64,000 nt of DNA from positions 11,098,001-11,162,000 of the forward strand of contig CM097886.1 in NCBI GenBank assembly GCA_044892525.1, written 5' to 3'. The notes below the pieces were generated by a model. That model had not been told where the DNA came from. It saw only the letters and a program-made list of their open reading frames with translations, and ran no database searches. This stretch comes from Schmidtea polychroa. Taxonomy: Eukaryota. Position numbers and translations under genes: made by a program. Below are positions 24,541 to 53,537 of this stretch, piece by piece (position 1 is the first letter of the stretch; each line of letters opens with the position of its first letter).

Positions 24541-24590
24541 GAATCAGCAATATTGTATACTTACCTGGCGCGAAGAGTAATCTTCGCGTC

Positions 24591-24643: not shown

Positions 24644-24741
24644 TTTGCACTGGGTATCACAAAGCTTGCAATGTTTATTTTATTGTTAGACATCCGTAAA
24701 ACAATATTTTAATATATATATATATTAATATATATCCCACA

Positions 24742-24810
24742 ACATATTTTGTCCCCCTATGGGTAATGGTCACACTAAACATGTTGCAAGGGTACTGCTC
24801 ACATACATCA
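24742..24810 (+). repeat. Module P: GACAAAATATTTTGTC palindrome plus ~29-bp GGGTACTGGTCAC/ACATGTTGCAA units
   Basis: Other copies at ~26100/26303, 36477-36540, 38480-38560, 41120-41180 and 41870-41950, in both orientations, usually next to N gaps. Confidence 0.8.
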
Positions 24811-25062
24811 NNNNNNNNNNNNNNNNNNNNNNNNNNNNNNNNNNNNNNNNNNNNNNNNNNNNNNNNNNNNNNNNNNNNNNNNNNNNNNNNNNNNNNNNNN
24901 NNNNNNNNNNNNNNNNNNNNNNNNNNNNNNNNNNNNNNNNNNNNNNNNNNNNNNNNNNNNNNNNNNNNNNNNNNNNNNNNNNNNNNNNNNNNNNNNNNNN
25001 NNNNNNNNNNNNNNNNNNNNNNNNNNNNNNNNNNNNNNNNNNNNNNNNNNNNNNNNNNNNNN

Positions 25063-26095
25063 TGATCGTCGTTTTCATCTTCCGACTGACACGTAGATTC
25101 CTCACTTTTCCGGCCATTTTTTAATTGTGCCCCTACCCTTTCCATTTCTTTAAATTGATGATCTGTAATAAAGAATCTAGCCAAAAATGGAATACAACCA
25201 ATAATTAATTTCCATGGTCATCCCGATATTGCATATATTCGATGTACTGACAACATTTGCGACACTACCACCTTTGCCGTTATCACAATCACGTAAATTC
25301 CAATTAAACTTGCACATACTTGCCCCAAAAACATGAACTTACCCCAAATCCTTTCCATCGTTTTGTATGTAGCTCGTTTGAAATGATCATGTATTAGCAA
25401 ATTTTCGTAATTTACTGTTCCTTCTCCATTCGGTAATACCGTGTCAATCATTTCTGAAATTATCCGTTCCTTCTTGGATGGAAACAACAAATTCCTTTGA
25501 GCTTCTTCGATATCTTCGCTCGCATACAAACCCATTTGTGCCATTTTGTTTAGTGATGAGAAATTTATCAGGTATTCTAAATTTGTTAATTCTAGTTTGT
25601 CTGGAGTCTTGACCCCACGATAATCTGGTAATGCTATCCATGAATCTGTCGCTAATCGGTATAAAGGGGCTAATAATCGATTGCATTGCAAAATCTTTGG
25701 TTTAGTTTGTTCATCAAGCAAGATTTATTTAGGCTTACTGGTAATTCGTTCGTACATTTTTCGTATTTAGCAATTTTCACTGTGACTTCTTTGCATTTGT
25801 AACTGTATAACGCTTCTCCAAATATTCTCACAAACACTCCATTTTCTGATATTAGTCTAGGTGCTACTAAATTTGGATTCGTAATTGCCATCGCCATCCG
25901 ATTTCGTAGAATCTCTTTATTTAACTTGCAATCGTTCAGAATCAATTCTCTATATACATTTTCCATTATGTTCTAACTAAAATGAAACAAATAATCAATT
26001 TTATTAATAAAATAATGAGTAAGTTTAATATCATCTCTATGAATTTTAATTTTTGCTTCTTCCACAACTTTTCTAGACACGTAAACACCTTCATA
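25063..26095 (-). pseudogene. C-terminal half of a chuvirus-type glycoprotein
   Basis: TYEGVYVS..HYFINKIDYLF, YRELILNDC, GEALYSYKC..V, CTNELPV, C..LLAPLY, MGLY..DI...LLFP, WGKFMFLGQVCASLIGIYVIV TM, acidic tail. Confidence 0.78.
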
Positions 26096-26302: not shown

Positions 26303-27110
26303 AGTGTGATCAGTACCCTTGATAAAACTATATATAATTATAATAATAATGTTTTTATTAATTGCAATGTCATTGTTTGGGATTGGAAAAACACACTTAA
26401 TTAGTTTGATATAGTTTTAAAAATTTGAAAGTTTGAGGGTATGACCATCATAGTCACCTTTGAATTACTTTTTGTTTGATAAATATACTATATAGTTTTA
26501 AAGGTTTTGGAACCCTTGTAGGTTTTTAATTTTGAAGGTTAAGCACCCTTCATAAACCTTTGAAATAGTGACAATGAAACTTATATCTCAAATACCTTTT
26601 GTTTAATATGTTTATTATTAGTTTTTAAAATTTTTGAACCTTGGACCTTTCGAGAGTTTGACATACGAACTTACCATCAAAAGTCTTTTTGAATGATATA
26701 TAACTTGTAAGATTTGAAAAACATTTAAGTTTGAATACCCTTTTAAGGTTATTAACCCATCATAAACAAATACTTTTTGAATGATCACATATTATAAGAT
26801 TTGAAAGAAATCGAAGTTTTTTTGACCCTTGGAAGGTTCAGGACTCACCATAAACCTTTGAGGGCATGACCATCATACTCAATTCTCAAATACTTTCGAA
26901 TGAGCTATGGTTCAATAAAATCCATTGACTCCTAAAATTCAAATTTTAAAATTTGAACTTAAAAAATATTACCTTGACTTTAAAAAATATGAACTAGACC
27001 TTAAAATATGGCCATGACGTTAAAAATGACTTTGAATGAGTCAATAACATTGAATGAGTCATCCTATGAGTCATGGTCTTTGTTTCAATGACCTTGATTG
27101 AGCGATACGA
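26303..27110 (-). repeat. Degenerate copy of the subterminal arm seen at 34700-35900 and 42763-44340
   Basis: Shared blocks gagggtatgaccatcat, gaccttaaaatatggcc and atgagtcatggtctttgtttcaatgaccttgat. Confidence 0.7.
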
Positions 27111-30400: not shown

Positions 30401-31880
30401 TAAATTAAAGTAATTTATGTTCTAATAAACAATCAAACCAAATCATCTACAATACAGCAGTGTGTGTACAAATACTGCTGGAAGAAAAATAACATGTCGC
30501 ATTACTTTATATAAGCTGTGCTAATGCCGAAAATCTCATTCGGATTTGTCTATTGATAAAATCTATTACAATAACTTTACTGATTTTCATTGCCTTTTTA
30601 ATCAACCAAAGCAGGTAGATGTGAGCCCGCTGGCACAAAGACCTATGACTCGTCACTTTTCAGTGATGACTCATCGTGTAGAGGGTGAGTCAGGGGTCAT
30701 GTGGGTGTATCATATATGTGTGTATGACTCATGGGATTTGTTCTACAGCGGTTCAAACCCATCATGTCGGGTGAAACGCATGAGTCATATATCTTTCAAA
30801 ATTTTTCTAAGGTAGATGTGAGCCCGCTGGCACAAAGACCTATGACTCGTCACTTTTCAGTGATGACTCATCATGTAGAGGGTGAGTCAGGGGTCACGTG
30901 GGTGTATCATATGTGTGTGTATGACTCATGGTCTGTGTTCTACAACATGTCAAACCCATAATGTCGGGTGAAAAGCATGAGTCATATATATTTTTCAAAA
31001 TTTTTCTAAGTCAAGACAAAGACATGTACCCCCCCCCAAAGCAAAAAATTTTTATGACTCATACTTTTTAAAAATTTTTCTAAGTTAGAACAAAGACATG
31101 TAACTCATAGCATTAATTTTTATGAATCATTATTATTTCAAAATATTACTATTATAATTAATATTATTATTATTGATATTATTACTATTTAAATTATTAT
31201 TATTATTATTAAACATCCTTAGTATTATTAATATTATTTTTTAAAATTATTGAATGACTTTAATATTGCATCTGAATTGCATCTTTCTTTATTAACTGTA
31301 TTGCCGCTGTCTTTCTTAATCATATATTTTTTTTCTATCCTATTATCTTTCAATTTATTTAAAATATTATTATTAATATTATTATTATTATTTTTTTTTC
31401 TAAATCAATAACAAATAACTGATTAAAAATTTATTGATTAAAAAATCTATTAAAAACCAAGAGAAAGTCTTGCACGTTTTAATCTCCATATTGGAGAATA
31501 AATATTGTTTTGGTCCACTTTGAATTCTAAGTTAGAACAAAGACATGTATCCCCTCCCCCTATTTTAAAATTTTTTATTATATATATTTTTTTCAAACAA
31601 TTTTAGTTTCTAATTATTATTATTATTTCAAAATATTATTTATATTATTATTGATATTATTACTATTTAAATTATTATTATCATTAAACATCCTTACTAT
31701 TATTAATATTATTTTTTAAAATTATTGAATGACTTTAATATTGCATTTGAATTGCATCTTTCTTTATTAAACTTGCAACTGTATTGCCGCGGTCTTTGTT
31801 AATCATATATTTTCTATCCTTATTTGTGTTAGCAAGGGTCATTATATAATAACTTATACAAATTATTATTAAAACAACCA

Positions 31881-32417
31881 ATGAAAGCCATACACATAAA
31901 TGGTATAAATAAAATGAAAAACAAAAAAATCATATTTCATTTAAAAATGAACGGGGAAATAATTGAAATTTTAAACGGAGTGGTATCAAATGAAAAAGGA
32001 GGTGAATTAATCACAAATATTCAAATTCTCGTGGATGAAGCCATGAAAATTTACAGAAGGAATCCCGTCGATTTTTCGTGGATCCTCACAAGGAAAACCA
32101 TAAATGCAAAGGAAAATGCATTTAAAAGCATATTTTATTCCTTATTTGAAAATATGAAGTGGTCACGGGTCATCGTGGCTTTCTTATACATGAAAATTAT
32201 TTTACAAAGTTCGGAAGAGAACTATGAAAGATATTTTTAAAATAATATCTAGATAATTCAAAATGAAATTTCGCCATGGGTATCAGAAAATGGATCCTGG
32301 AATGTCATTAATGAAATTGTTGAAAAACGAAAATCTCAAGACAAGACAAAATTAATTTTAATAATGTTTGGAATTACTGTATGTTGTTTTTCTATAAAAT
32401 ATATTTTTAAAAATTAA
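31881..32417 (+). pseudogene. Bcl-2 family homolog with C-terminal membrane anchor (short disrupted stretch at 32238-32252)
   Basis: BH1 SLFENMKWSRVIVAFLY; past two in-frame stops, BH2 IIQNEISPWVSENGSW and TM LILIMFGITVCCFSIKYIF. Confidence 0.8.
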
Positions 32418-33008
32418 TACTTCTTTTATTCTTTAATATTGTAAAATAAAAAAAAAATTAATCTTTATTATTTATTACACTATAACATTCGCATTCCTCG
32501 TCACCACATTTATTATCTTTATTTGTTTCTTCATCATCGTTCATATTTTTGTCATATTGTGCATCATCCAATATATGATTATATATATTTATTCCGGTCA
32601 TTTCTAATATTTTTTCGGCTAAATACTTTATCCGATCATCTATAAAAAGAATTAAAAAATAATAATATTAATAATAAAATACCTTTTTCATTTAAAGTAG
32701 ACATTTTATGTATTTTATGTATTATGTGTCTTTGTTTATTTGCATGTTTATTGCACATGTCTTTATGTTATTCATGTGATGACTTAGTCATCTCTTTGTT
32801 AAAAATACTCATCATTTCCTTGTTTAAATTTAGTAGTCATGTCTTTCTAATTTACATGCTATTTTTTTTCTAACCAATCACAATTCTGATTGGTCAATTT
32901 TATCATTTCACTAAATACTCAATTTCGATTGGTCGGTGAGTAAATCTTTTTGTTTTGATATTATGTATAAACATCACTTTTAATTTCACTTTTAGAAAAT
33001 TTCAAAAT

Positions 33009-33491
33009 ATGAACAAGCAAATATTCATGACTAAAGAAGAAGAATCGATTTCGCGAAAATGTAAATTTATTATTTTTATTTTTAAACTTGAATTTATTAT
33101 TATGTTTTAGGAAATGTTTGTCACTTTTTCATTGGGAATCCGAAAAAAGCTCGTTTAGGAAACATACAGCAAAGTAAAATTTATTTAATTTTTAAAACTT
33201 TATTAATATTTTCCTATTAGATGTTTTAGCTTCAACTTCCGCTTCTATTCGATCCAATTTTTTGCCTGTGGATATTGATGAAGAAGGTAAATTAAATTAT
33301 TATTAATATTCAAAATATTAATATATATTCAGAAAACAACCAAAATTTACCCAACAAATCTCGCAGGAATGACAAAAAAGAAAAATATTTAATGAACAAT
33401 GCCATTCAAAACCCAAACATGCCCAATATTTCGACAAATGCCAACCAAAAATTAACCAACAAGTCTCGCAGGAAGAACAAAAAAGAAAAAT
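33009..33491 (+). pseudogene. Small spliced gene of unknown function (exons 33009-33060, 33111-33173, 33221-33286, 33333-33491)
   Basis: Three GT-AG introns (50, 47, 46 nt); exons 2-4 form one open frame ending in repeated NKSRR..KKEK; exon 1/2 junction creates TGA; CCAAT boxes at ~32870-32940. Confidence 0.55.
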
Positions 33492-34280
33492 GTAAGTGTT
33501 TTCAAATTGAAATATGTGATTCGAATAATTTATTTAATAATTATGATATAGATATTTTAAAGTAATTTATATTTTAGTTTTTATTACGTTTTTATAAAAT
33601 AATAACTGTTTTCCAATTGAAATATGTGATTCGAATAATTTATTTAATAATTACGATATATATATCTTTTTTCAAGTAATTTATATTTTATTATGTTTTT
33701 AAAAATAAAATTATTTAAGTTGATAACTATTATGAAATTTATTTTCAAAAATATTATTATTATCATGTAAATTTTTCCAATTGAAATATGTGATTCTGAT
33801 ATTTTATATAATAATAAGTAATTCATAGTTTATTACTTTTTATAAAATAAATAATTCAAAATAATTATCGATTTTTTTAAAAATTATTTTATTTGGAAAA
33901 ATTTACATTTTAATAATATTTTTGAAAATAAATTTCATAATAGTTATCAACTTAAATAATTTTATTTCATAATTTAAAAAATATAATTTATTAGTTGTCA
34001 TTAAAGATATTGTTATAAATAAAGATGAAAAATATTTTTAAACCTAATATTTTACACAGGTAAATTATACCCTGATTGTTGTCAAAGGACAGATCATGGG
34101 CCTGGTTGTCACGATACTATGGATAATTATTATAGTAAAACTTACTATAATAAAAAATATTACATATGTCCCATATGCATGACTCTAAACGTAAACGAAT
34201 ATATTGATTTTTATAATCAACATAAAAATCATTTATCCTATTTTGAAAGTAATAAAAAAGAAATTTTTTCAACATTAATT

Positions 34281-34765
34281 AAACATTTAATGAAATAGTT
34301 AATTCCGATAAAAAAATTATAACAAATTCTGAGGAAACTGAAATTATTGCACCAGAACCTATAGTAATTACTGAGGTTATAACAATTTCTGATGACGATG
34401 AAAATGTACAAGAAGAAGAAGATGGAGCTGAAGATCACGAGGAAGACCGTAGAGAAGATAGGCCAGAAGATGGTGGAGAAGATGGAGCTGAAGATGGTGG
34501 AGAAGATCGTGACGAAGACCGTAGAGAAGATCGCGAGGAAGATCGTGAGGAAGATCGTGAGGAAGATCGTGGAGAAGATGGAGCTGAAGATGGTGCTGAA
34601 GATGGGCCAGAAGATGGTGGAGAAGGCCTTGGAGAAGATGGTGAAAATTTACCAGTGATCGAATATGATTTGAATCGATCGCATAAGGTAATAAAATTAA
34701 ACATTGAAACAAAGAACATGACTCACTCAAGGTCATATGATGACTCATCAAGGCCATATTTTTAA
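34281..34765 (+). CDS. Acidic low-complexity reading frame (EDxx repeats) with SIM-like motif; no ATG, not in the ORF track
   Basis: Open frame ..EPIVITEVITISDDDENVQEEEDGAEDHEEDRREDRPEDGGEDG..; 12-nt GAAGAT periodicity. Confidence 0.5.
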
Positions 34766-34935
34766 GGCCAAGGTCATATTTTTAAGGTCAAGGTCATATT
34801 TTTAAAGGTCAAGGTCATATTTTTAAGGTCAAGGTCATATTTTTAAGGTCAAGGTCATATTTCTAAAGGTCAAGGTCATATTTTTTAAGGTCAAGATCAT
34901 ATTTTTAAGGTCAAGGCCATATTTTAAGGTCAAAC
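34740..34935 (+). repeat. ~21-bp tandem array of AGGTCAAGGTCATATTTT
   Basis: About 8 units; inverted copy at ~44150-44280. Confidence 0.9.
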
Positions 34936-34949
34936 CTTCACCAAAGGGT

Positions 34950-35600
34950 ATCATTCGAAAGGTATTTGAGAGGTCTATCTAATGGTCATATCCTCGAAGG
35001 TGTATGGTTGGTCAATAACCTTCAAAGGGTCAAAAACCTTCGAATATTTTCAAACTTTATATTATATATATCAGTCGAAAGGTATTTGAGAGGTAAGTAT
35101 GATAGTCATACCCTCGAAGGTGTATGGTGGGTCCTCGGCCTTCAAAGAGTCAAAAACCTTCGAATTTTTTCAAACTTTATAATATATATATATCAGTCGA
35201 AAGGTATTTGAGAGGTCTATCTAATGGTCATATCATCGAAGGTGTATGGTTGGTCAATAACCTTTAAAGGGTCAAAAACCTTCGAATATTTTCAAACTTT
35301 ATAATATATATATCAGTCGAAAGGTATTTGAGAGGTCTATCTAATGGTCATATCCTCGAAGGTGTATGGTTGGTCAATAACCTTTAAAGGGTCAAAAACC
35401 TTCGATTTTTTTCAAATTTTATAATATATATATCAGTCGAAAGGTATTTGAGAGGTCTATCTAATGGCTATATCCTCAAAGGTATATGGTGGGTCAATAA
35501 CCTTCAAAGGGTATCCAAAATTAAATATTTTTCAAATCATATAATATATATATATATCATTCAAAAGGACTTTTGATGGTGAGTTCGAAGGTCCAAGGGT
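34950..35600 (+). repeat. ~120-122-bp tandem repeat
   Basis: About 5 units of tcagtcgaaaggtatttgagaggt...aaactttataatatatata. Confidence 0.92.
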
Positions 35601-36069
35601 CGAAGGGTCCAAGGTTCAAAAATTTTAAAACCTTATAATATACATATCAAACAAAAGGTAATTTAAAGATGAGTATGATGGTCCAAGTTTGAAGGTCAAA
35701 AGAGTCCAAGGATCCAAGGTTTAAATTTTTCAAACCTTATAATATACATATCAAACAAACGGTAATAAAATTCATAATAAAACTCATTTATTTTTTGAAC
35801 AAACTCATCATTTTCAGAACATAGACAATGACGCGCCCATGGGATTTATTATTTATTACTATCAAATGTATTATTATTATTTATTATTATTAATTTCAAT
35901 ATTATTTATTATTATTATTATTTTCGAAGATATTTTCAAAATTTATTATTAATAATATTATTATTATTATAATTATTATTATTATTACTATTATTATTAT
36001 TGTCGATGTTTTATTATTATTTACTTAAATATTCATAAAACTTAATTTCTGCCTCAATTTACGATTTTC

Positions 36070-36260
36070 AATATTTGATGATTATTTTCAGGAACATTTT
36101 CATAATTTTAACGTTTTCATCATTTTCAATATTTTCATCATTTTTTAATATTTTCACGATTTTCAACATTTTCAGGAACATTTTCATTATTTTCAACGTT
36201 TTCATCATTTTCAACATTTTCATAATTTTCACGATTTTCAATATTTTCATGATCATTATC
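36070..36260 (-). repeat. 9/18-bp GAAAAT(GAT/GTT) repeat; inverted copy at 41370-41560
   Basis: Periodic gaaaatgatgaaaatgtt. Confidence 0.85.
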
Positions 36261-36864
36261 TTCAAAATTCTTATTTTAGTTATAAAATATCATTTTCAAA
36301 ATTATTTTCAAATTTCTTATTNNNNNNNNNNNNNNNNNNNNNNNNNNNNNNNNNNNNNNNNNNNNNNNNNNNNNNNNNNNNNNNNNNNNNNNNNNNNNNN
36401 NNNNNNNNNNNNNNNNNNNNNNNNNNNNNNNNNNNNNNNNNNNNNNNNNNNNNNNNNNNNNNNNNNNNNNNNNNNNGACAAAATATTTTGTCCCCCCTAT
36501 GGGTACTGCTCACACTCAACATGTTGCAAGGGTACTAGTCATGCTTATTATTATTGTTATACAATATGATGTTACTTAGACATTTGAAGGTTCAACCATG
36601 GTTACAATTTCTACATTTTGAAAACGCTAATTTGATTGGCTATCTCAATTTTTATAAATGTAAAAACCAAAGTAATTTAGTTATTAAGAAATTTATTTAT
36701 TACTGATTTCTACAAGTATGAATATGATTGTGTAAATCACAAAACACATTTAGTAACTTTATTATTTTGTCAATATTTTTTTTTATATATGTCATTTATA
36801 GCAAGGAAGTCCTACTAGAAATAAGGAAAAATTAAGTCCAACCTATTCCGAAGATAAGCGTTCA

Positions 36865-37315
36865 TTGAAATTTTTTAACAGCACAGTTGAAGATTTTATA
36901 AATAATCATGATACTTACACTGATAAGGAAATCATAAATCTTTTAAAAATTTTCAAACATTCCTCTATTGAATATTTGATTGAATTATTTAATTATGATA
37001 AATGCATTTTGAAGTTATTTAATGTATTTAGAAAAAAAACAATGGTAAACAACGATTCACTGAATGAATACTTTTGGAGTTGTATGTATTTAAGGTTGAA
37101 ACCGGGATATAGTAGATTGATTTATGAATGGATAGCAAAAGCCGATTTGATTGAAAATAAGCTAACGGAAAAACTGAACGATGTTAAGAAAAGTTTCGGT
37201 TTTGTATTTACCGTGTGGTCACGTAATTGTTTGTTCTAAGTGTCACGATAAGAATGTTCACAATTGTCAAGCCTGTTCAACACTGAATAATGAATATCAC
37301 ACTATATACATGTAA
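36865..37315 (+). pseudogene. Helical N-terminal domain plus C-terminal IAP/MDM2-type RING finger (frameshifted)
   Basis: 124-aa ORF; an overlapping frame 37181-37315 reads MLRKVSVLYLPCGHVIVCSKCHDKNVHNCQACSTLNNEYHTIYM*; the first Cys pair is degenerate. Confidence 0.7.
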
Positions 37316-37399
37316 GTTTTCAATACAAATCAATACAATATCAAAGTCAAATGAATTATTACCATACATAATGACGGTACTATAATGTAGAAAATTTTC

Positions 37400-37665
37400 A
37401 AACATTGAATAATATGAAATCATCTTTGTAATTAAATATATTGGGCGCAACTACCAAATGTTGATGATATGATGGATAGTTTGGTATTTATAATATTATT
37501 TTAGATTATTCAGAATGAAATATACCCATGAGTTCATCAAAATGGGAAAAGATCTTCGCAAGAACCATGAAGATGCTGGAAAAGCCGAAGAAACCCTAAT
37601 CAATATTTTAAAGTTGATATTATGTGTTACAGTAGTATTGGGTTATTTTTGTTTCGTAAATAAAT
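37400..37665 (+). pseudogene. Second Bcl-2-like remnant, related to 31881-32417
   Basis: IIQNEIYP*VHQNG (BH2, Trp codon mutated to TGA), then TM-like ILKLILCVTVVLGYFCF. Confidence 0.55.
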
Positions 37666-40381
37666 CTTTTAATTTGTTTTTATAAATTTATTGTTTTATT
37701 GTAATACCTTTTAATTAAAACATATTCATTATTAATTCATTTTGTTTTAATATTTGTATTAATTTTTTAAATAGTGTTATTTATATATATGGAAATTTGC
37801 AATTATATATACAATTATATATTATATACAATTATATTTACAATTATATTTACAATTATTATAAATCATAATGATGCTTTTCTTCTTTCCATTGATTCTC
37901 CTCTGATATTACTGCCATAATCATCTTCGACAAAATGCAAAGATAATATTTCTAGTGTCTTTGTTAATCATTCCCATTTATTGCAAAGTCTTTGTTAATT
38001 ATGCACTTGTATTGCAAATTTATTAGTCATACAATTATATTATTTTTTCATGCCCTGACATAATATTATTATTTATTATTATGATTATTTTATTTAACAA
38101 TACCATATAGCAAATTTTTAGGCAATTTAGTGAAAAGTACATGGTTATTTTAAATATAGCGATTTCTTAAGTAAAATATTTCCAGATAAATTTACCAATT
38201 TAGTTAGAAATCCCTGGTTTTTGGCTGTACCATTTAATTAAAATATTCTAGGATTCATAACAAATATTTTGATATAGTTGATACATATACCAATTATTTC
38301 AATTATTTAACTAGAAACATAACTGAATTCTTAGGTAATATAGTATTTTTTAGTTAATTTATAAATATAATCTGACATGTTGATGTATCAATGCAATATA
38401 CAACAAATTAATCAATAAAAACCATAGCATTTTGTAAGTTTCTATATATAGTCTGAATTTATCCGACAAAATATTCTGTCTCCCTACGTGTATTTATCGT
38501 AAGGGTACTGGTCACATTCAACATGTCGCAAGGGTATATTAATTAAGGCCTATGCATATTAGTTAAAAATTCTTAGGTAATTTAGTGAGAAATGGATGAT
38601 CATAGATATCAGAAATTCGTGAATAATTTGAATGTAACTTACCGAATTCTTATTTCGAGCGACTAATTTATTGGTTAACTTTGTCATGTTTAGTCATTTA
38701 TTATTTAGCAAAAGGTAATATATGCATATTTAGCATTTCATAGGTAATTTATTCATCTAGTGTTCATTACAATAGTTTATATAAATTCGTGAGAAATGCA
38801 TGGTCATTAATATATTTATTGATAATTTTGGTAGAAATTCTTTATCATTTGGAGTAAATTTCTATCTTTGTTCGAGGCAAAAAGGAATCATAATAGAAAC
38901 ATGATCATTTGGTTATCATTTAACCATTTAAAGTGCTTATTAGTTAGAAATATAGGGTTACAATTCTTTTTTAATTTAATGAGATGATCATTGGGTGTAA
39001 TATACCTTTGTGAGAAATATATGGTCGTATAGGTTAGGATATTTGAGTAACTTTTACCAAAACATGGATATTTTGTGCGATCAATTTATGAATATTGCTT
39101 AATTTTCTCATTTTTAATCATTTAAAATAATATTTAGCAAAGGTAATTTAGCAAAATATCATTGAAAGATTTATCCATCCGATAACAATATTCCTTCAAT
39201 AGATTTTTTACCCTTAATATTCAACCGATTTAATTTCTAGAAATCTAATTAAAATCATAAATTTCGTTCACTGATATCCACACCATGAATAAAATAACTT
39301 CTTAAATAAAATAATTTAAAGCAATAACCTTTGATATCAATCCCAATTAATTCTAAAGATTTCAAATATTTCATTGTCAAAACCAAGTAAATGGATCATT
39401 AACCCTAAAAGACTTAATAAAACAGTGGATAATTAATAAAAAACTGGTTCTAAAACAAAAAATCTAAATTACTGTGCAATGACATTCATCACAGTCTAAT
39501 AAACCTCTAAAACGATATAATTTCACAGGAACTATTATTAATTCATAGCTAAATACTGAATTTTTTCCCTTTAAAATTTGATATTTTACCAATAAGAACA
39601 TTGTCGATTTAAATAGAGATTTCAAACATTTTCACCTTAACCGATCCCTCACCAAATATTTCTACCCCATTAAATACCCCTTTAAAAATCATATATTACC
39701 ATCTTAACTGAACCTTCACTAAATCCAACCGACTTTAATATATCAGCCCTTTAATATATCAATTCTCTTAAAATTCATACAAAATTCTTCAAAATATGAA
39801 TTTTATTTAATTGTTACAGGCTTCAAACATTCTTCCATTGAAATAATTTATTATCTAAATTCATATAGTAAGAGCCCACTAAAAGATCAAAATTCACTAA
39901 AATCAATATTTTCTACAAATATTTCACCACATTTACCATCAAATACCTAACTAGAGATGAAATATATTGATCATAATTCTTCATCGATTCAGCAAATTAT
40001 ATAGCAATTATAACGTGATATATCTTTCAAAATCACAAATTTCAGTAGATTTTACAATAATTTTCAAGTAGATTTCAAATATGTCATGATGATAAATTAG
40101 CTGGTTTCAACTGTAGATTTTCAATATTTAAAAGTTCATCAATATTCTTAGAAAATATATGAAAAAATTATTTAGTCAAATTCAATATCATTACAAAGTT
40201 ATCATAAAAATTAAATAATAAAACTCTAATTATTAACCTAACTGTCATTAAAAATAATTTTTATTTAAAATTAAATTTAAAAATAAGTCAATAAAATATA
40301 GCAAATTAACAAGAAATTAATTATATTTGTCTTAGAATTAACACTAAAACTTTAAATTTTTAAATATTCTTTCAATTATTC

Positions 40382-40793
40382 ACAGGCTTGACAATTGTGA
40401 ACATTCTTATCGTGACACTTAGAACAAACAATTACGTGACCACACGGTAAATACAAAACCGAAACTTTTCTTAACATCGTTCAGTTTTTCCGTTAGCTTA
40501 TTTTCAATCAAATCGGCTTTTGCTATCCATTCATAAATCAATCTACTATATCCCGGTTTCAACCTTAAATACATGCAACTCCAAAAGTATTCATTCAGTG
40601 AATCGTTGTTTACCATTGTTTTTTTTCTAAATACATTAAATAACTTCAAAATGCATTTATCATAATTAAATAATTCAATCAAATATTCAATAGAGGAAGG
40701 TTTGAAAATTTTTAAAAGATTTATGATTTCCTTATCAGTGTAAGTATCATGATTATTTATAAAATCTTCAACTGTGCTGTTAAAAAATTTCAA
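40382..40793 (-). pseudogene. Inverted duplicate of the RING gene, truncated after ..HNCQAC
   Basis: Near-identical to 36865-37277 (H32P and one silent change seen). Confidence 0.85.
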
Positions 40794-41651
40794 TGAACGC
40801 TTATCTTCGGAATAGGTTGAACTTAATTTTTCCTTATTTCTAGTAGGACTTCCTTGCTATAAATGACATATATAAAAAAAAATATTGACAAAATAATAAA
40901 GTTACTAAATGTGTTTTGTGATTTACACAATCATATTCATACTTGTAGAAATCAGTAATAAATAAATTTCTTAATAACTAAATTACTTTTGTTTTTACAT
41001 TTATAAAAATTGAGATAGCCAATCAAATTAGCGTTTTCAAAATGTAGAAATTGTAACCATGGTTGAACCTTCAAATGTCTAAGTAACATCATATTGTATA
41101 ACAATAATAATAAGCATGACTAGTACCCTTGCAACATGTTGAGTGTGAGCAGTACCCATAGGGGGACAAAATATTTTGTCNNNNNNNNNNNNNNNNNNNN
41201 NNNNNNNNNNNNNNNNNNNNNNNNNNNNNNNNNNNNNNNNNNNNNNNNNNNNNNNNNNNNNNNNNNNNNNNNNNNNNNNNNNNNNNNNNNNNNNNNNNNN
41301 NNNNNNNNAATAAGAAATTTGAAAATAATTTTGAAAATGATATTTTATAACTAAAATAAGAATTTTGAAGATAATGATCATGAAAATATTGAAAATCGTG
41401 AAAATTATGAAAATGTTGAAAATGATGAAAACGTTGAAAATAATGAAAATGTTCCTGAAAATGTTGAAAATCGTGAAAATATTGAAAATGATGAAAATAT
41501 TGAAAATGATGAAAACGTTAAAATTATGAAAATGTTCCTGAAAATAATCATCAAATATTGAAAATCGTAAATTGAGGCAGAAATTAAGTTTTATGAATAT
41601 TTTAGTAAATAATAATAAAAAATCGACAATAATAATAATAGTAATAATAAT

Positions 41652-41697
<46 letters not shown>

Positions 41698-43019
41698 TTT
41701 TGAAAATAATAATAATATTTTGAAAAATAATAATATGACCTTGAAAATAATAATAATAATAATATTTTGAAAATAATAATAATATTTTGAAAAATAATAT
41801 GACCTTGACAATAATAATATGACCTTGAAAATAATAAAATAATAATTATAAAGTTATAATAATAATATTAATACCCTTGCGACATGTTGAACGTGACCAG
41901 TACCCTTACGACAAATACACATAGGGGGACAGAATATTTTGTCGGATAGACTAGGAGTATATAATAATAATAATATTGATTAAAACTTTGGAAATAATAA
42001 TTTTGAAAATAACATCTTCCGCGCGGGCGGTAATATCTTTCCAAATATTAATGATAAATTAAATTATTACGTAATCGAAATTTAAAACAAAAAAAATATT
42101 ATTATATAATTAACGATTTAAATAAAATTAAATTATTACGTATTCGATAATTAAAACAAAAATTAAAATATTATTATATAATTAACGATTTAAATAAAAT
42201 TAAATTAATAAGTAATCGATAATTAAAGCAAAAATAAAAATAATATATAATCAACGATTTAAACAAAATTAAATTATTAGGTATTCGATAATTAAAACAA
42301 AAAAAAATTTTATTATATAATCAACGATTTAAACAAAATTAAATTATTACGTATTCGATAATTAAAACAAAAAAAAATAAAAATATTATTATATAATTAA
42401 CAATTTAAACAAAATTAAATTATTACGTAAACAAAAAATAAACCGCTGGAACAAAAATAGATGTCTTTGTTACTAAAAATAGAACGACCTTGGTGAGTCA
42501 TCGGATCAAAAATGTTACTAAAATTATATTAAAAATGTTACTAAAAATAGATGTCTTTGTTACTCAAAATAGAACGACCTTGGTGACTCAGCGACTGAGT
42601 CATTGTCTTTGTTTAAATTACCNNNNNNNNNNNNNNNNNNNNNNNNNNNNNNNNNNNNNNNNNNNNNNNNNNNNNNNNNNNNNNNNNNNNNNNNNNNNNN
42701 NNNNNNNNNNNNNNNNNNNNNNNNNNNNNNNNNNNNNNNNNNNNNNNNNNNNNNNNNNNNNNATTAATAAATCCCATGGGCGCGTCATTGTCTATGTTCT
42801 GAAAATGATGAGTTTGTTCAAAAAATAAATGAGTTTTATTATGAATTTTATTACCGTTTGTTTGATATGTATATTATAAGGTTTGAAAAATTTAAACCTT
42901 GGATCCTTGGACTCTTTTGACCTTCAAACTTGGACCATCATACTCATCTTTAAATTACCTTTTGTTTGATATGTATATTATAAGGTTTTTAAATTTTTGA
43001 ACCTTGGACCCTTGGACCT

Positions 43020-43050
43020 TCGAACTCACCATCAAAAGTCCTTTTGAATG

Positions 43051-43081
<31 letters not shown>

Positions 43082-44130
43082 GATTTGAAAAATATTTAAT
43101 TTTGGATACCCTTTGAAGGTTATTGACCCACCATATACCTTTGAGGATATAGCCATTAGATAGACCTCTCAAATACTTTTCGACTGATATATATATATTA
43201 TAAAGTTTGAAAAAATTCGAAGGTTTTTGACCCTTTGAAGGCCGAGGACCCACCATACACCTTCGAGGGTATGACCATCATACTTACCTNNNNNNNNNNN
43301 NNNNNNNNNNNNNNNNNNNNNNNNNNNNNNNNNNNNNNNNNNNNNNNNNNNNNNNNNNNNNNNNNNNNNNNNNNNNNNNNNNNNNNNNNNNNNNNNNNNN
43401 NNNNNNNNNNNNNNNNNNNNNNNNNNNNNNNCGAAGTTTTTTGACCCTTTAAAGGTTATTGACCAACCATACACCTTCGAAGATATGACCATTAGATAGA
43501 CCTCTCAAATACCTTTCGACTGATATATATATATTATAAAGTTTGAAAAAATTCGAAGGTTTTTGACCCTTTGAAGGCCGAGGACCCACCATACACCTTC
43601 GAGGGTATGACCATCATACTTACCTCTCAAATACCTTTCGACTGATATATATATATTATAAAGTTTGAAAAAATTCGAAGGTTTTTGACCCTTTGAAGGC
43701 CGAGGACCCACCATACACCTTCGAGGGTATGACCATCATACTTACCTCTCAAATACCTTTCGACTGATATATATATATTATAAAGTTTGAAAAAATTCGA
43801 AGGTTTTTGACCCTTTAAAGGATATTGACCAACCATACACCTTCGAGGATATGACCATTAGATAGACCTCTCAAATACCTTTCGACTGATATATATATAT
43901 TATAAAGTTTGAAAAAATTCGAAGGTTTTTGACCCTTTGAAGGCCGAGGACCCACCATACACCTTCGAGGGTATGACCATCATACTTACCTCTCAAATAC
44001 CTTTCGACTGATATATATATATTATAAAGTTTGAAAATATTCGAAGTTTTTTGACCCTTTGAAGGTTATTGACCAACCATCAACCTTCGAGGATATGACC
44101 ATTAGATAGACCTCTCAAATACCTTTCGAA
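43020..44130 (-). repeat. ~122-bp tandem repeat, inverted relative to 34950-35600
   Basis: Identical peptides in ORFs spaced 122 nt apart (43505 and 43627); spans a gap. Confidence 0.92.
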
Positions 44131-44139
44131 TGATACCCT

Positions 44140-44442
44140 TTGGTGAAGGTTTGACCTTAAAATATGGCCTTGACCTTAAAAAATATGATCTTGACCTTTA
44201 AAAATATGACCTTGACCCTTAAAAAATATGACCTTGACCTTAAAAATATGGCCTTGACCTTAAAAAATATGACCTTGATGAGTCATCATATGACCTTGAG
44301 TGAGTCATGGTCTTTGTTTCAATGACCTTGATGAGTCATATGTCTTTGTTTAGAATTTGACCTTGAAAAAAAAATTTCGTTTACCCCCCCCGGGGTAGTG
44401 TGCCAGAGGTGACATGTGCCAGTGGTGACACATCCCACTACT
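44140..44442 (-). mobile_element. Nested Polinton-like terminus (AGTAGTGGGATGTG) at the 3' end of the PX-like gene
   Basis: Revcomp AGTAGT at 44442, G-run, AP-1 and TCAAGGTCA motifs; inner part is the inverse of 34700-34960. Confidence 0.7.
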
Positions 44443-44760
44443 AATAGCGCCCAATAAACATTGTTGATACGCACAATTTAGATGAGTTCCATAAATACAG
44501 TGAATATTTTCTAGGATTTTCCGAATGGTTTTGAATTGGTACAATATTAATCGTAAATTCGGGAAGCTTTTCTTTAGTTTTTGATACTTTCTTTCATCGA
44601 TAACATAGAAAATACTTTCATTTTTTATTGTTTTCAAATATTCTTCGTGAAATTTCGAATTAATGTAAACACAATGTATAGGCTCTAAAATATTATTCAC
44701 ATCCATAATACATAATTCAGTAACAGTATCAAATAGAATATCAATGAAAAAACAAGTCAT
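44443..44760 (-). CDS. Polinton-associated small protein (PX-like) ending in a C..H..CA motif
   Basis: IFYVIDERKYQKLKK..IHCIYGTHLNCAYQQC; adjacent to the protease. Confidence 0.45.
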
Positions 44761-44778
44761 TTAAAAAAAAACATTTAT

Positions 44779-45140
44779 TTAGTAATGTTTATACATTAGC
44801 CAAGCAAGACAATGTTGACCACATGTTTGAGTCAATGGATGTTGAAACTGAATTTTGTTGTATTCAATAGGACCACCATATAAGGTTAGTTTTTTGATCA
44901 AGAGAGTTAGATAATAGAAACCCATAGGATCGGAAACATATACTTTATCGGGCTTCTTATAGACTGCAATCCAGTGTTCTCCACCAAGAGTAGACGAATC
45001 AGTGTTGACAATAATGGCTTGATTGTTTTTTAAATAGGGAATTTTATCTAATGGGTACACTCCAACAAAATTATTTCACAGAATTTGATAACCAATTCGA
45101 TTAACCTGAACAGAATGATTATAATAATAACATAGGTTAT
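44779..45140 (-). CDS. Adenain-like cysteine protease (Polinton PRO); 5' end has a stop
   Basis: FVGVYPLDKIP, IIVNTDSSTLGGEHWIAV, YVSDPMG, QFQHPLTQTCGQHCLAWL. Confidence 0.9.
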
Positions 45141-45149
45141 TAAAAACTT

Positions 45150-45589
45150 ACTCCATGATATGCTAATTTCTTTCTTTACTTCATTTATGATCAATAAAAA
45201 AAATTTTTTGTTCAAACCAACAATGTGGAAACAAACCAAAAGCGGAAAACACTATTATATTTTTCAAAATTGGAAAATGTCGAATAATGGGTTGTAAAGC
45301 TACAATAATTACGACTGATTTGCAGTATAAAAATACAAATATAGTGTTACAATCAATTATCGTTACTATAGATCTGGGAAAATGTATTAATTTATACAAA
45401 TTGAGTAAACAAACCAATTGCATGTTCGAACCAGAATTATTTCCAGCTTTGAAACTTTTACAATATAACCCTTTGTGTGTCAATGTGTTTTCGAGTGGAA
45501 AAGTTGTTGTGTTAGGGCTTGGAAATTTAGATTACATCTCATTCGTTGATAATTTAGTAAAGGATATCATAAGATTGGTTGAAAATTGA
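45150..45589 (+). CDS. TBP-like protein (two TBP repeats, frameshift in the first)
   Basis: TIIFFKIGKCRIMGCK; LQSIIVTIDLG..INL..L..MFEPELFPAL..CVNVFSSGKVVVLG. Confidence 0.8.
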
Positions 45590-48500
45590 TTGGTTGAGAA
45601 ATGATACTTAATATGGTTATCAAATACGATAATTCTTTTTTTTTCACAATGAATAATCTTACTGAAAATGGTATTTTATAATTAATTATTTTCAATTTTA
45701 TCATTTATATTTAGAAAAGTTGATGTCGATTTTGTTAATGAAATTTTGAAAAAGTATGAGTCATAACATTTTTTTGCTATGGGGGGGGGTACATGTCTTT
45801 GTTCTAACTTAGAAAAATTTTGAAAAAGTATGAGTCATAAAACCTTTTTGCTATGGGGGGTACATGTCTTTGTCTTGACTTAGAAAAATTTTGAAAAATA
45901 TATATGACTCATGCTTTTCACCCGACATGATGGGTTTGACACGTTGTAGAACTAAGACCATGAGTCATACACACACATATGATACACCCACGTGACCCCT
46001 GACTCACCCTCTACACTATGAGTCATCAAACGATGAGTCATCACAGGAAGTGATGAGTCATAGGTCTTTGTGCCAGCGGGCTCACATCTACCTTAGAAAA
46101 ATTTTGAAAGATATATGACTCATGCTTTTCACCCGACATGATGGGTTTGAACCGCTGTAGAACAAATCCCATGAGTCATACACACATATATGATACACCC
46201 ACATGACCCCTGACTCACCCTCTACATGATGAGTCATCACTGAAAAGTGACGAGTCATAGGTCTTTGTGCCAGCGGGCTCATATCTACCTACTAACTAAG
46301 CTAAAGGGCCAGGACATTATGGTAAATTAAATTTTAATTATCTCAATAATCAAATTTTAAAATTTCAGATATTTTTACTTTCAATTGATTTGACTAATAA
46401 ATATGTTGCCATGCGCTTATTCAATGAGTAATTTTATAAAAATGTGCTAATGATCATCAAAAGACTTTTCTATGATAATCTGTAATATTGTTATCATTCA
46501 CATGAATTTTCAAGTTATGGACAAGCATAATTGATAAACGAAGTTAAAAATAAAATTTTCGGAATATGAATTATTTTAATTTACTCAAAATAACATTTTT
46601 TTCTGACGAAAATATTCTTGAATACAACAAAATATTGATCTAGTAGTAGGTAGATGCAATGATTAGCAAGAGGCTCCCTAACCTCACCCTCTTTAAGATG
46701 AAGTCACCATTAAATTTGATTTTTAAGTGAAATTTTCCTTTTAGCTCTATCTCGCTGTAGATCGGGGGTGAGATCTTCAAAATATTATTTCGGCAAAAAT
46801 TTGGAGGATGACGTCACCTAAATAGATTGAAGGACAAGTAAATGACAACCATTTTACTGTTACACCTAATTCCGAAATTTAATAACTTCTATAATCTAAA
46901 AAAAATCAATAAATATATATTATAGAAACACACAAACTTACCTGTGTGTAGAAATTTATTGTTCCGAAATTTAGTAACTTTATTATAGGTTTTGTGAAGG
47001 TGAGAGAAAAATAACTGAACACACCAATACAAAATACATAATGAAAAATGCATTCAAAATTCTTATATAGGTTTTTGTTCCGAAATAAATAACTGTTAAC
47101 ATATTGTTAAAATATAATTATTTTAAAATTATTAAAAAATGCAAGAAAATATTTTTAATTTAGATTCCGACAGCTCTACCTTGAGCTTTAGGGAAAAAGA
47201 AGAAAATACAATGTAAGTTTTATTCATTAAATTACAAAATATTAAAATATTTTATAGTATGTGTGAAGGCAGCATTTCAAATATTGAAGGTCCTTCGAGA
47301 TCTTTTGATTTACAGAAAGAAAAAAGCCATCGAAAATGAGCTGCAGAAAGAAGATTATAAAAATTAAAAAAACTATTTCATTCATGTACGCCGATTTTTT
47401 CCTAAATGTCTTAAAAAAATAAATGTGTTTGGTGATTACTTTATTTATTTATAAATATAAAAATATCTAACTTACATTTTAGCGAAATAAATCCATATTA
47501 ATGCATAAAATATCATAAATTTCCTAAAAACACCTGAAATTTAATTATTAATATATTTATAAATGATAAATTATAAACGATGACTAACAGTAATATTTAA
47601 GAACTTGAATAATGATCTCATAATTATATAAAATCAAAATTCAAGTCTTAAAATATACTTGAAATTAAAAAAATTACCTGAAAACCATTTTTAATAAATT
47701 AAATAAATGAAATTTAATAACTTCATTTTCACGTAAATGGTAACTCACCTCAACTGGTGTGCACACCAACGTGAATTATAGAGGTTATTAAATTTCGGAA
47801 TTGGGTGTATATATAATTAAAGTCTTTAGTTCCTTTCTAAAATAACCTGTATATAAATCTAATTTTATTGAATTTGAATGTTAAAATATTCATTTATTAT
47901 ATCTTTAAAACAGTTAATATTTGTATTTAAATCAAACATAAACATAAATTTAATTTGTTATGTTTTATGAAATATTTCGACACTGCCAAGCGCATTTTTC
48001 GAATCATTTATTAAAATTTGTCATTTTTTCTGGTCTTGGAATATTTTAATTAAAAACTCAACATAAAATAAAATTTAATTTCCACCATTTTCAATACAGT
48101 TATAATAAAAAAAAAATTTATAAATACATTTTTAGTAATTTAAATTTAGGGAAATATTTTTAAAACATTTATCTAAATTGAATAATGATTAATCCCAATA
48201 ACCGTTAATTGGTGGTTGTTTATTATCAATTATATGCCATCAAGTTTATGTTTAGAATGATAAAACTTAAGTAAATATTTAAGTATCATTTAAATTTAAA
48301 ACAATTTTCTATGTTAAAGAAGTTGTGTAACAAGTTATAATTTAATTTTGAAAAATTAATAATTGAAAGACTCAACTTTGCTGCTTCTTATATAAATAAA
48401 ACCAAGTCTCAGTATAAATATTTATTAATAATAAAAATTACCTAAAATAAACAATGCAAGTTTCCAAATAAATCGTATTATCAATTCAAACAATTATTTC

Positions 48501-50141: not shown

Positions 50142-53100
50142 GTGGGGAGCGAAACTTCAACTCATAGTTCACCAGTTAGAGTAAGATATTGGAGGGGAAA
50201 TGATTCAAATCAAGATTTAAATCAAAACTTTCTAAATTCAAAAATTGAAACCAAGTATAATTATTTATTTTCTACGAGTGGATTCAAAAGAATGATTAAA
50301 GATGTAATAAGGGAGTTGGAAGAAAATCAAGAAGATCGTGAACAACAATTAGGAGAATCAAATTTAATTTTCCATTCTTTCCAAAGTATTGAAATAAATT
50401 GTTGGAAGGGAAGACTACCAATTCGTAAATCTTATATTCCAACACCATTTATTTCTAAATATATTATAAATGTTAAAAATAGAGATAACAAATGTTTCCT
50501 ATGGGCAATTTTATCAGCTCTACATCCACAACAACATAATTCAGAGCGAGTATCTAAATATCGACAATATGAAAATGAAATAATATTTTGGGAAGATTTT
50601 GAACATCCAATGAAAATAGAACACATATCAAAATTTGAAAAGTTGAATAATCTTAGAATTAATATTTATGAATTAGAATCTTAGAATGGTAAGGAAATCA
50701 TACCAATTTATATTTCGAAACAAACAATTTCTGAAACAAGTTTTAGGTCTGAAACAATTAGTCTACTAATGTTAGAAAAGGATTCAATTGATTCAACTGG
50801 TTTAATTTCTCATTATGTTTGGATACAAAATTTTCAAGGTTTTATAAGATCTCAATCATCAACCTCTCATAGTGTTAGAGGACACACTTGTGAAAGATGT
50901 CTTTCTTATACAACTTCTGAAAATGTAAAAATAAAACATGAAAGATTATGTCAACAAATTGAACCAGCATTAATTAAAATGCCAAAAAATCCTGAGATGA
51001 AATTTAAAAACTATTCAAATTTATTAGAATCTCTTGTTACAATTTATGGAGATTTTGAAACTATTAATACAAAACAAAACCTAGAACAAGAATACATGAA
51101 TGTTATAGAAAGAAATGATCTAACCGAGTCTTGGAATGAATACAATTCCAACTTGGATTCCTCTCTCTCTCTCCAAACTTGGATGAATCAAATAGAATGA
51201 AAACTTTCTCAAGATGAATAAAAAATCTTTTACAATAACAATAACCCAACCACTTCCATCTGCATATAATTTATTCATCAAAACTAATTATCCTAAATTG
51301 GTTAAATCATTTGAAATATCATATCGAGGAACTTCAGCACAAGATACTTTAGATCATTTTGTTACAAATATAAATACTTTGGAACACTTATTATTTAAAA
51401 AATTACAAACCAATTATCCAATACATTTTTCATCACATCAACGAATTGAATATCAAAATTCTGAAATTTGTTGGATGTGTAAGCAAGACCTTTTAGATGT
51501 TACAAACCCAAAAGTTCCTGATCATGATAATTTTAAAAAGAGAAATAAATATAGAAGTGCAACACATAAATTATGTAATTTAAATTGTAAAAATCCAAAA
51601 TTCATACTAATCATATTTCACAATCTTGGTTATGATGTACATTTATTCATAAAACATTTAGCAATCAATGCAAAAAATAGTTTAAAGGTTATTGGATTGA
51701 CAAAAGAAAATTACAAGTGTGTAGAGTATGGATGTTTAAAATTCATAGATTCATTAAATTTCTTTAGAACAAGTTTAGATTCAATTGCAAAAACAATGAG
51801 ATTTGATCAAAATTTTAAATATACCACAGAAAATGTTTTAATTAAAAATATTATTCCAATGTGTTGGGGTTAGAGCAAAAACAAAATAAATTTCACAGGG
51901 TACCAGAAAGCAGAACAAAAATTGGTAAAATCAATATAAGTACAAAATTAATTAAAATTTAATAAAAATTAAAAATCAATATCGAACGGGGGTATCGGGT
52001 ATGGTTGAATGCCAAATTGTGAGACGCGGTTAGAAAGTATAATAAAAATGTAATAGGGTGACCATAGAAAAAGTTAATAAGGGAAAACAAATTAATTAAA
52101 ATTAATTAATCTGTAATGGAAAGCCCGAGCCAATGGAAAGCCCGAGCCCATGGGAAACCCGAGCATTGAAGAAAACCCGATGCGCAGTGAGACCCGAGAC
52201 ACCAGATAAGGGAATAACAATTCGAATAATAATTGCAGGGTAAATAAATTAAAATAATTGTCGAACCGTTCAAAATTTACTTAGGGTGCCCGGGGAAACA
52301 ATTAATTTCATTTTGTTAGATAATGGGCCTCTTAAAAACAGTATAAAAGGAGATCTTAGAAATGAGCAAGCCGCCATTTGGTCGAAGAGAAAAAGGAAAA
52401 AGTTAAACAGAAAATCCAGCAAGGACAAGTCAAAAGAGGAAATTTGTGAATTATAAAGAAGCTAGATCGTAGAAGAAAAGGTAATTACCCCTTGGGTTTC
52501 TTACCTTAGCGAACCAAATTCAAATTGAGAGAAAGGTGCAAATAGTGACAAATTGTAATTGTGATAAAAAGCGAATAAAGTTATTCTGTGTTGAGTTTTC
52601 ATTGATTTGATAAAATAAGGACACGAGGAGTCAGAGAAAGGACCGACTTACAAATAAAAACTCAACAAATGGAAGAATATCAAACTTGTTTAGCTAAAAG
52701 AATATATCCATATGATTATATGGATTCATTTGATAAATATCTCATAACAGAATTACCACATGAAAATTTTTATTCAATATTAAATCAATCAATTACATCA
52801 CAACAAGAGGATTCAAGAGCTAGAAAAATGTGAGAATTGTTTGATTGTGAAACTATGGGTGATTACACAGATGTATAAGTTTGGATGTTTATATTCTTGC
52901 AGATTGTTTCGAAAATTTTGTAAAAAGATTTCCTTTGAAACCTTACAACTAATAACTCTACCTTCATTAGCTTGGGATATATGATTATATGGTATGATTG
53001 GTTCAATTGAATTACTAACTGATGTAAACATGTTCAACATGATAAAAAATAATATCCGTGGAGGAATTAGTTATATAATGGGTGAAAGATATATCACTGC

Positions 53101-53537
53101 AATGAATTATAAATATATTTACAGAACTTTAGGACAAGAACCAGTTGTAGAAATTCAAAATGAGCAAGAATACGAAGTAATAAAAGAATGTTTAAATAAT
53201 CCATGTGAAATTTTATACATTGATGCAACAGCTTTATATTCAGGGACTATGACTCAATATTTACCATTTAAATCCTTTGAATGGCAAGAACCAACAAATG
53301 AATTAATCAACAATATATTAGGAATTCGTAAAAATTCTAATATTGGATATTTTCTAGAAGTATATTTAGAATATAGAGATAATATAAAATACAAAACAAA
53401 TTATTTCCATTTCCACCAAGAAGGTTAAATGAAGATGAATTATCCAAATGGCAAAAAGAGAAATGAACAAGAAAAAATTGTTACTAGCACAAAATTATTA
53501 TGTGATCAAACCAACAGAGTAAACTATCTTGTACATT
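50142..53537 (+). pseudogene. polB: Polinton protein-primed DNA polymerase B, disrupted
   Basis: INVKNRDNKCFLWAIL, HYVWIQNF, YGDFET, CWMC..DHD, IFHNLGYDVH, KFIDSLNFF.TSLDSI, KRIYPYDYMDSFDK, IRGGIS, ILYIDATALYS..M..LP, GYFLEVYLEY. Confidence 0.93.
51862..52667 (+). mobile_element. Solo LTR inserted in polB
   Basis: TGTTGGGG...CTCAACA; 4-bp TSD AATG (51858-61, 52668-71); removal joins IIPM to EEYQ..KRIYPYDY. Confidence 0.92.

Follow-up and report, generated by a model that had tools for sequence, protein, structure and literature searches.

Two nested, decayed Polinton derivatives underlie an apparent apoptosis-cargo element in Schmidtea polychroa

Can a Polinton give up its replication and capsid genes for genes that control apoptosis? 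A 15.7-kb stretch of Schmidtea polychroa DNA raises this question. It occupies positions 30,610-46,293 of the window, by which we mean the whole 64,000 nucleotides that were analyzed (assembly GCA_044892525.1, contig CM097886.1, positions 11,098,001 to 11,162,000 of the forward strand). The original prediction saw a single element between the outer terminal inverted repeats (TIRs), namely a satellite Polinton carrying apoptosis-related cargo instead of core genes. We find that the stretch is two decayed Polinton derivatives, one nested in the other. The outer element accounts for about 5.9 kb (parts of about 4.1 and 1.85 kb) and derives, as a decayed copy, from a Polinton subfamily of low copy number, which we call family A; it contains a TIR, a Bcl-2-like gene, the 5' part of polB, an open reading frame (ORF) of unknown family, a protease gene and a TBP-like gene. 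The other 9.7 of the 15.7 kb (34,702-44,442) belong to a separate family with its own termini and 6-bp target-site duplications (TSDs), so the prediction of one element does not hold. Our preferred explanation, to which we assign a probability of roughly 0.87, is that a decayed capsid- and integrase-less Polinton copy holds a palindromic derivative, and that this copy was likely moved in trans by integrase from complete Polintons of the same genome. As part of this explanation, the apoptosis-related genes would be inherited standard accessory genes, damaged in the window and dispensable for the spread of the outer subfamily.

The genome that we searched comprises 781 Mb, is AT-rich and has four very large contigs; the window lies on the contig labelled C2. 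The family labels A, B, C, D and K are working labels of this analysis.

The outer ends are true Polinton ends, and they consist of the following features.

30,604-30,609 (+): left target-site flank, AACCAA; the right flank, AACTAA at 46,294-46,299, is alike at 5 of 6 positions
30,610-31,144 (+): left TIR of the outer family A Polinton, starting with AG, a 197-bp unit present twice
45,743-46,293 (-): right TIR of the outer element

These TIRs are long, start with 5'-AG (termini AGCAGG and AGTAGG) and, as inverted copies, are 91% identical over 555 nt. The chance of a 5/6 match between the flanks is about 0.013, and perfect 6-bp TSDs are present at sister loci (gtaatg, ccagta, ctcata, ttatat and gcattc). 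TIRs of ~500 bp with a 6-bp near-TSD had been predicted, and both are borne out. Copies with the same TIR were sought with an exact 26-letter pattern of the outer terminus, which matches the genome 27 times (its reversed control matches 0 times). Among the interiors of the 26 of these 27 termini that were mapped, we saw no further case of this composite that had both outer termini and undamaged cargo, nor an intact complete element with the outer TIR.

The nested part is the source of both RING copies and of the second "Bcl-2". Its features are as follows.

34,702-44,442 (unstranded): palindromic non-autonomous Polinton derivative with family D termini; the right terminus is intact at 44,442, and the arms lie at about 34,702-37,287 and 40,371-44,442
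36,802-37,312 (+): IAP-type (inhibitor of apoptosis) RING gene without BIR match, in the left arm; a deletion takes the first Cys pair and shifts the frame
40,355-40,856 (-): the broken RING gene again, as a mirror copy on the right-arm side; the arm segment is 99.4% identical over 800 nt
37,502-37,682 (+): remains of the second exon of a Polinton Bcl-2, with BH2 and membrane tail; the stop is fixed in the family, and the match to family A exon 2 has E 0.001

The right end at 44,442 is a second AG-starting Polinton terminus, with 370 exact matches in the genome, whereas the outer TIR has 27. Six loci hold free copies that have both ends and perfect 6-bp TSDs (taatag, gacgac, tttgca, cacgta, accaat and ggatgc), and most of the nested part aligns with free palindromic copies at 88-98%. 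The same ends also bound a complete Polinton that has a TSD, polB, integrase, major capsid protein (MCP), ATPase, Bcl-2, TBP-like and RING genes. In three DNA-like sequencing runs, the bin 34,582-34,827 shows an increase of about 100-fold in summed contig depth, although this measure is rough and one of the studies may be the source of the assembly. We also considered the inner inverted repeat as a Foldback or cut-and-paste transposon; this was rejected given the AG-starting Polinton termini and 6-bp TSDs that it shares with a complete Polinton.

Two of the predicted cargo genes must be reinterpreted in this light. The RING domain in the window is recognized by Pfam (E 1.1e-6), and the gene is indeed present twice, but both frames are broken, both copies lie in the nested insertion, and no BIR domain is matched. 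The first RING Cys pair is absent in 12 of 20 fetched instances, both window arms included. An intact 184-aa homologue matches the RING of cIAP/XIAP only and has no match to a BIR domain; as judged from sequence, the gene looks like an IAP-type E3 RING and not a full IAP. Similarly, of the two predicted Bcl-2-like genes, only the first, in the outer element, is such a gene (and it is broken), while the second is the BH2-exon relic, whose stop is present in 13 of 13 fetched instances. We rejected the idea that the latter is a BH3-only gene: the frame concerned is unconserved, and the conserved frame is that of the BH2 exon with its stop.

Nested and palindromic Polinton derivatives are seen elsewhere as well. 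Four of eight mapped loci of the capsid-less type (the window, L016-L018, L020-L021 and L024) hold a nested Polinton-ended non-autonomous element; three terminus types are represented, and two of the nested elements have perfect 6-bp TSDs. Also common are mirror-image (snap-back-like) derivatives containing polB, e.g., L048-L049 (C1:74.55 Mb), L019, L097-L098 and inverted polB pairs, and one family A locus is a palindrome with 9-kb arms of 99.5% identity. Within the window, 26,430-27,100 contains diverged sub-repeats (65-81%) of the nested arm type, which are probably the end of another Polinton derivative.

The start of polB was overlooked in the original prediction.

33,009-33,491 (+): four small exons of 52, 63, 66 and 159 nt, predicted 5' exons of polB; every intron is in phase 1, and in this copy a stop arises at the first junction
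34,060-34,709 (+): first part of the main polB exon; it takes in the acidic "SIM-like ORF" stretch, is frameshifted and is cut at 34,709
34,702-34,709 (+): polB meets a TIR sub-repeat of the nested element here, across 8 bp of microhomology

Positions 34,029-34,709 encode the polB N-terminus, with 95% identity to family A polB and 45% identity (E 5e-17) to the polB of complete family K. In sister copies the frame continues into PF03175, at full length and with E 5e-18. The assertion that polB is missing is therefore incorrect, and the acidic SIM-like ORF is not a separate gene but part of this N-terminus. The predicted spliced ORF exists as four putative exons, although probably not as a gene of its own: in the predicted gene model, the last acceptor of the set is in frame with polB. 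Most of the splice motifs recur in the six sister copies in which the start motif was found (nine were looked at), and some are changed. We consider it likely that these exons are the 5' end of polB.

The join marks a deletion: compared with a sister copy, the outer element is short of about 3.9 kb, and the nested element of about 118 bp at its left end. The contigs of two sequencing runs cease to match at 34,709, which is expected if other copies run on into polB.

The prediction was right that integrase, ATPase and MCP are missing. None of these, nor penton, was matched when the unmasked element was searched by tblastn with the core proteins of complete families, or with an MCP profile of 110 sequences. 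The four masked stretches, of 128-155 bases, all lie inside the nested part, and each is too short for a core gene. The 15.7 kb contain a core gene, as a polB start, and separate insertions; in part, these are outcomes that the original prediction had itself named as refuting it. The remaining genes of the outer element are listed here.

31,881-32,417 (+): two-exon Bcl-2-like gene of family A; a short deletion took the splice-donor region, and the gene is broken
32,461-32,667 (-): small accessory ORF with a C-terminal Cys motif, kept in sister copies
44,443-44,760 (-): family A ORF of no known family, earlier called "PX-like"; the first 107 of 111 codons remain, and the nested right end abuts at 44,443
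44,782-45,158 (-): adenain-like protease, a core gene, with an in-frame stop upstream of the catalytic His
45,226-45,240 (unstranded): founding deletion junction, at which the MCP-protease spacer (to 45,226) is fused inside the TBP-like gene (from about 45,240)
45,240-45,589 (+): TBP-like gene, 5'-truncated by the founding deletion; it matches complete-element homologues from about residue 39-44
45,666-45,743 (+): accessory ORF stub of 26 codons; a second local deletion fuses the stub to the right TIR

Pfam supports the predicted TBP-like gene (E 2.5e-12) and protease (adenoviral protease, E 2.2e-5), and both are broken. Exon 1 of the Bcl-2-like gene matches PF00452 with E 0.022, which is below the cut-off; the gene is 33% identical (E 7e-14) to the Bcl-2 of family K Polintons, which passes the Pfam cut-off, and its splice-donor region is kept in 5 of 9 family A loci examined. 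The PX-like label did not survive. The intact sister ORF was used for the Pfam search, and no match to penton or to any Pfam family was obtained, so the ORF was rejected both as a penton and as a PX domain; its last 29 codons in the window run into the TIR of the nested element. The stretch is non-autonomous, as predicted: polB is cut, the protease is stopped, and the other core genes are unmatched. The view of the cargo as partly decayed was also accurate, as Bcl-2, RING, TBP-like and protease genes are all broken in the window.

Complete elements carry the same accessory genes. Bcl-2 and TBP-like genes lie beside the core block in all three fetched family C elements, in full-length family K elements and in the complete family D element; among complete elements, the RING gene was seen in family D. 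The claim that cargo stands in place of core genes therefore fails, as its appearance is produced by a nested insertion, an overlooked polB start and accessory genes that complete elements share.

Family K consists of young complete Polintons (C2:50146177-50162685, L091-L092, and L093-L107) whose copies are 99.2-100% alike. Their integrase (rve, E 1e-11), ATPase (Pox_A32), protease and intronless Bcl-2 pass Pfam cut-offs. The MCP is a double jelly roll by predicted fold (pLDDT 94.2), with a best Foldseek E of 1.5e-15 to iridovirus and PBCV-1 capsids; its sequence gave nothing useful against PDB or Pfam, and no viral contigs carrying this MCP were confirmed. The penton of family K is putative, being labelled from gene position.

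To place the Bcl-2 genes, a phylogeny against host paralogs was run (14 rows, all kept), in which the Polinton Bcl-2s group with one host-like paralog with support 83/93. No Polinton gene lies within 10 kb of this paralog, an exon at C1:268544050-268544511 (L141-L142); outside Polintons, it is the closest relative for each of the five Polinton Bcl-2s that were tested, at 24-42% identity. As a lead only, the Polinton gene may be an old capture from such a host-like paralog. Elsewhere, a cluster of seven near-identical canonical Bcl-2 exon copies lies at C4:89.9-90.8 Mb (L071-L077).

How did an element without integrase come to exist in several copies? The outer element is collinear with sister copies that keep polB, at 94-96%. 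With the founding deletion, MCP, PZ, penton, integrase and ATPase were lost together with the TBP-like 5' end; the resulting protease-TBP junction is found at seven loci. The protease stop is present at five of the six loci matched, and the sole exception keeps MCP sequence. In addition, five loci hold older family A relics in which pieces of MCP, penton or integrase, all broken, lie beside family A genes. Given these relics and the shared junction, a complete ancestor appears to have lost its capsid-integrase block, after which the deleted form multiplied; because it multiplied without integrase, integrase would have come in trans.

We therefore regard the predicted mobilization in trans as likely, with families C and K as candidate helpers. 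The first-look search gave 4,382 MCP candidates for family C, of which 132 were scored. The first 19 bp of family K are identical to the outer terminus, and its core frames are open; this 19-bp terminus has 167 matches, most of which are not family A, and 8 of 10 fetched loci are family K. Core origins of adenoviruses are about 19 bp long. In contrast, the core genes at 50-60 kb of the window are unlikely as the helper that the original prediction proposed. The polB there (25% over 104 aa) comes from a distant family and survives in pieces; the fragment with integrase, penton and MCP carries a frameshift and retains only MCP residues 1-85. The fragmented polB occupies 50,292-53,428, and a near-identical repeat (L134) lies about 21 kb downstream, beyond the window edge. 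An integrase-penton junction fragment also occurs at C1:152342-152348 kb (L117), in about seven tandem 801-bp repeats inside an old family A relic.

The history that we propose would run as follows. A complete family A Polinton with polB, protease, MCP, penton and integrase would have existed, as the relics suggest. A single internal deletion, visible as the shared junction, would then have taken MCP through ATPase and the TBP-like 5' end, and the protease would have gained its stop. The deleted form would have reached at least seven loci with borrowed integrase and perhaps its own polB. Into the window copy, as the present structure indicates, a family D palindromic derivative would have inserted whose RING gene was already broken in its subfamily. 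Finally, to judge from the 8-bp microhomology, a later deletion would have removed most of polB and the nested left end.

A reciprocal class of elements also exists. Class B is present at four loci, C1:8061823-8072640, C4:15674942-15686882, C1:263603223-263614083 and C2:154346551 onward (L012-L015, L022-L023 and L057-L058). It has the window's TIR, a C-like block of protease, MCP, PZ, penton, integrase and ATPase, a TBP-like gene and Bcl-2, and it is without polB, which makes it the mirror image of family A. Its TSDs are gcattc, ttatat and one of 5/6. Two complementary gene sets with shared termini are thus found, family A with polB and without capsid or integrase, and class B with capsid, integrase and ATPase and without polB. 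Copies of class B are 95-98% alike and those of family A 94-98%, so the two are of similar age. The core of class B is close to that of family C (MCP DNA 94%, integrase protein 90-96% identical), and for this reason complementation between A and B is possible but not required.

We examined selection on family A by counting changes in eight copies taken as junction-bearing (in seven the junction was seen, and one ends just before it). Two near-identical duplicates that inflated the shared class, and two copies without the junction, were left out. Changes in polB that are shared by at least two copies number 6 synonymous and 3 non-synonymous (pN/pS 0.13, p 0.003), while private changes number 36 and 112, respectively (pN/pS 0.78, near neutral). 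For protease and TBP together, shared changes are 2 synonymous and 10 non-synonymous (pN/pS 1.31). Family A polB may thus be under purifying selection, a weak signal given that the nine shared changes are not tree-like and that mutation bias is unmodelled.

These data bear on three other explanations. One is that family A and class B were two segments of a split Polinton, sharing a TIR and complementing each other after their complete ancestor decayed. The four polB-less class B loci with the same TIR, the similar ages, the contrast between shared polB changes and the 2:10 ratio for protease and TBP, and the lack of an intact complete element in the mapped interiors all speak for such a pair. 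However, the very abundant family C could have served family A without class B, family K has the identical 19-bp terminus together with open core frames, and the selection test counts nine shared changes that do not fit one tree. We consider this explanation unlikely. A less probable one, to which we give little weight, is that the capsid-less copies are independent decay products or segmental duplicates of ordinary Polintons rather than a transposing subfamily. Every copy has private deletions or insertions, and the private polB changes are near neutral, as independent decay would predict; yet one junction and one protease stop are common to loci on three contigs with differing sequence beside the termini, and the copy at C1:253.47M has a perfect TSD. 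Least credible of all is the single satellite Polinton of the original prediction, with replication and capsid genes swapped for host-manipulation cargo and with the core genes at 50-60 kb as its source of mobility. Its TIRs and near-TSD are real, as are its Bcl-2, RING and TBP domains, and MCP, penton, integrase and ATPase are indeed unmatched. Against this, the start of polB survives, the two RING copies and the second Bcl-2 are part of the separate family with 370 termini, complete elements carry the same cargo, the Bcl-2, RING, TBP and protease genes are broken, and so are the genes at 50-60 kb, where polB is of another family.

It is important to emphasize that several points also weigh against our preferred explanation of a trans-mobilized, capsid- and integrase-less copy with a nested palindrome. 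The TSD in the window is imperfect (5/6), and both termini and the TSD were checked at only two of the seven junction-bearing loci (the window and C1:253.47M). The join at 34,709 is bridged by none of the listed contigs and rests on the assembly, although a lack of bridging proves nothing. As a candidate helper, family K shares the 19-bp terminus, yet at 99.2-100% its copies are younger than those of family A (94-98%). Lastly, among the 150 best-scoring copies elsewhere, which were chosen by likeness to an intact query, most have an open RING frame, so that the RING gene may have a role in complete elements.

The analysis is useful chiefly as a correction, in that an apparent cargo satellite proves to be a nesting artefact. 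Beyond this, spread without integrase, with an apparently constrained polB and a decaying protease and TBP-like gene, points to replication that can remain in cis and integration that can be borrowed, which could bear on how Polintons replicate and integrate. The existence of a reciprocal class with the same ends opens complementation between defective Polintons to test.

We compared these elements with known systems. Like Polintons/Mavericks in general, they have long AG-starting TIRs, 6-bp TSDs, pPolB and an adenain-like protease (PMC4028283, PMC6431247), and their complete relatives in this genome have integrase, A32-like ATPase, a double-jelly-roll MCP and a putative penton. Krupovic et al. 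2014, in which PX denotes the penton, report nine Polintons with joint loss of MCP, protease and ATPase (PMC4028283). The family A subfamily differs from these nine in also being without integrase and in keeping polB and a dead protease at at least seven loci; the window copy is additionally without most of polB. Concerning nested or split Polintons, the parts available of PMC8532177, PMC3014272 and PMC12220804 added nothing. Among the titles and starts of abstracts that were searched, a set outside which most subscription journals and Repbase reports fall, we found no description of an integrase-less subfamily that keeps polB or of a complementary pair.

Anti-apoptotic homologues in animal Polinton-like elements are already in print. 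Starrett et al. 2021 describe Bcl2 and IAP homologues in adintoviruses, which are animal Polinton-like elements with accessory genes, and, for related viruses from eukaryotes other than animals, a TBP-like gene is marked in a figure legend there (PMC8502044); the part of its supplement that was searched contains no flatworm entry. In contrast to adintoviruses, the RING gene here is without BIR match, and the genes are broken passengers split over two nested elements. The nematode Mavericks of Widen et al. (10.1101/2022.07.12.499685) resemble our elements in having intron-bearing, host-derived cargo between the TIR and the core block, and in modular exchange. They differ in the cargo, which here is a Bcl-2 closest to one host-like paralog; matches to fusogen, wasp and krma were not sought. 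In planarians, BCL2-like and BIR motifs are found in Burro Gypsy elements (reviewed by Arkhipova and Yushenova 2019, PMC6431247). At 20,200-26,000 the window contains a Gypsy-type element that resembles them; it has a fusion glycoprotein gene of Monjiviricetes type (E 1e-16) and, at 23,251-23,892, a Bcl-2-like ORF (Pfam E 8e-4). However, Burro elements are retrotransposons, and the Bcl-2 of the window's Gypsy element groups apart from the Polinton Bcl-2s.

If the split explanation were true, it would mean that a Polinton has been caught dividing into two segments, family A with a polB kept by selection and class B, which would have acquired the same ends. The genome would then preserve an intermediate on the way to bipartite genomes like those of bidnaviruses. 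Bidnaviruses are single-stranded DNA viruses that are not known to have an integrase, and their genome is laid out in two segments. These segmented viruses have a pPolB of Polinton origin (PMC4061559). A polB unit and a polB-less unit with common terminal repeats would resemble the pair formed by family A and class B, if the two did depend on each other.

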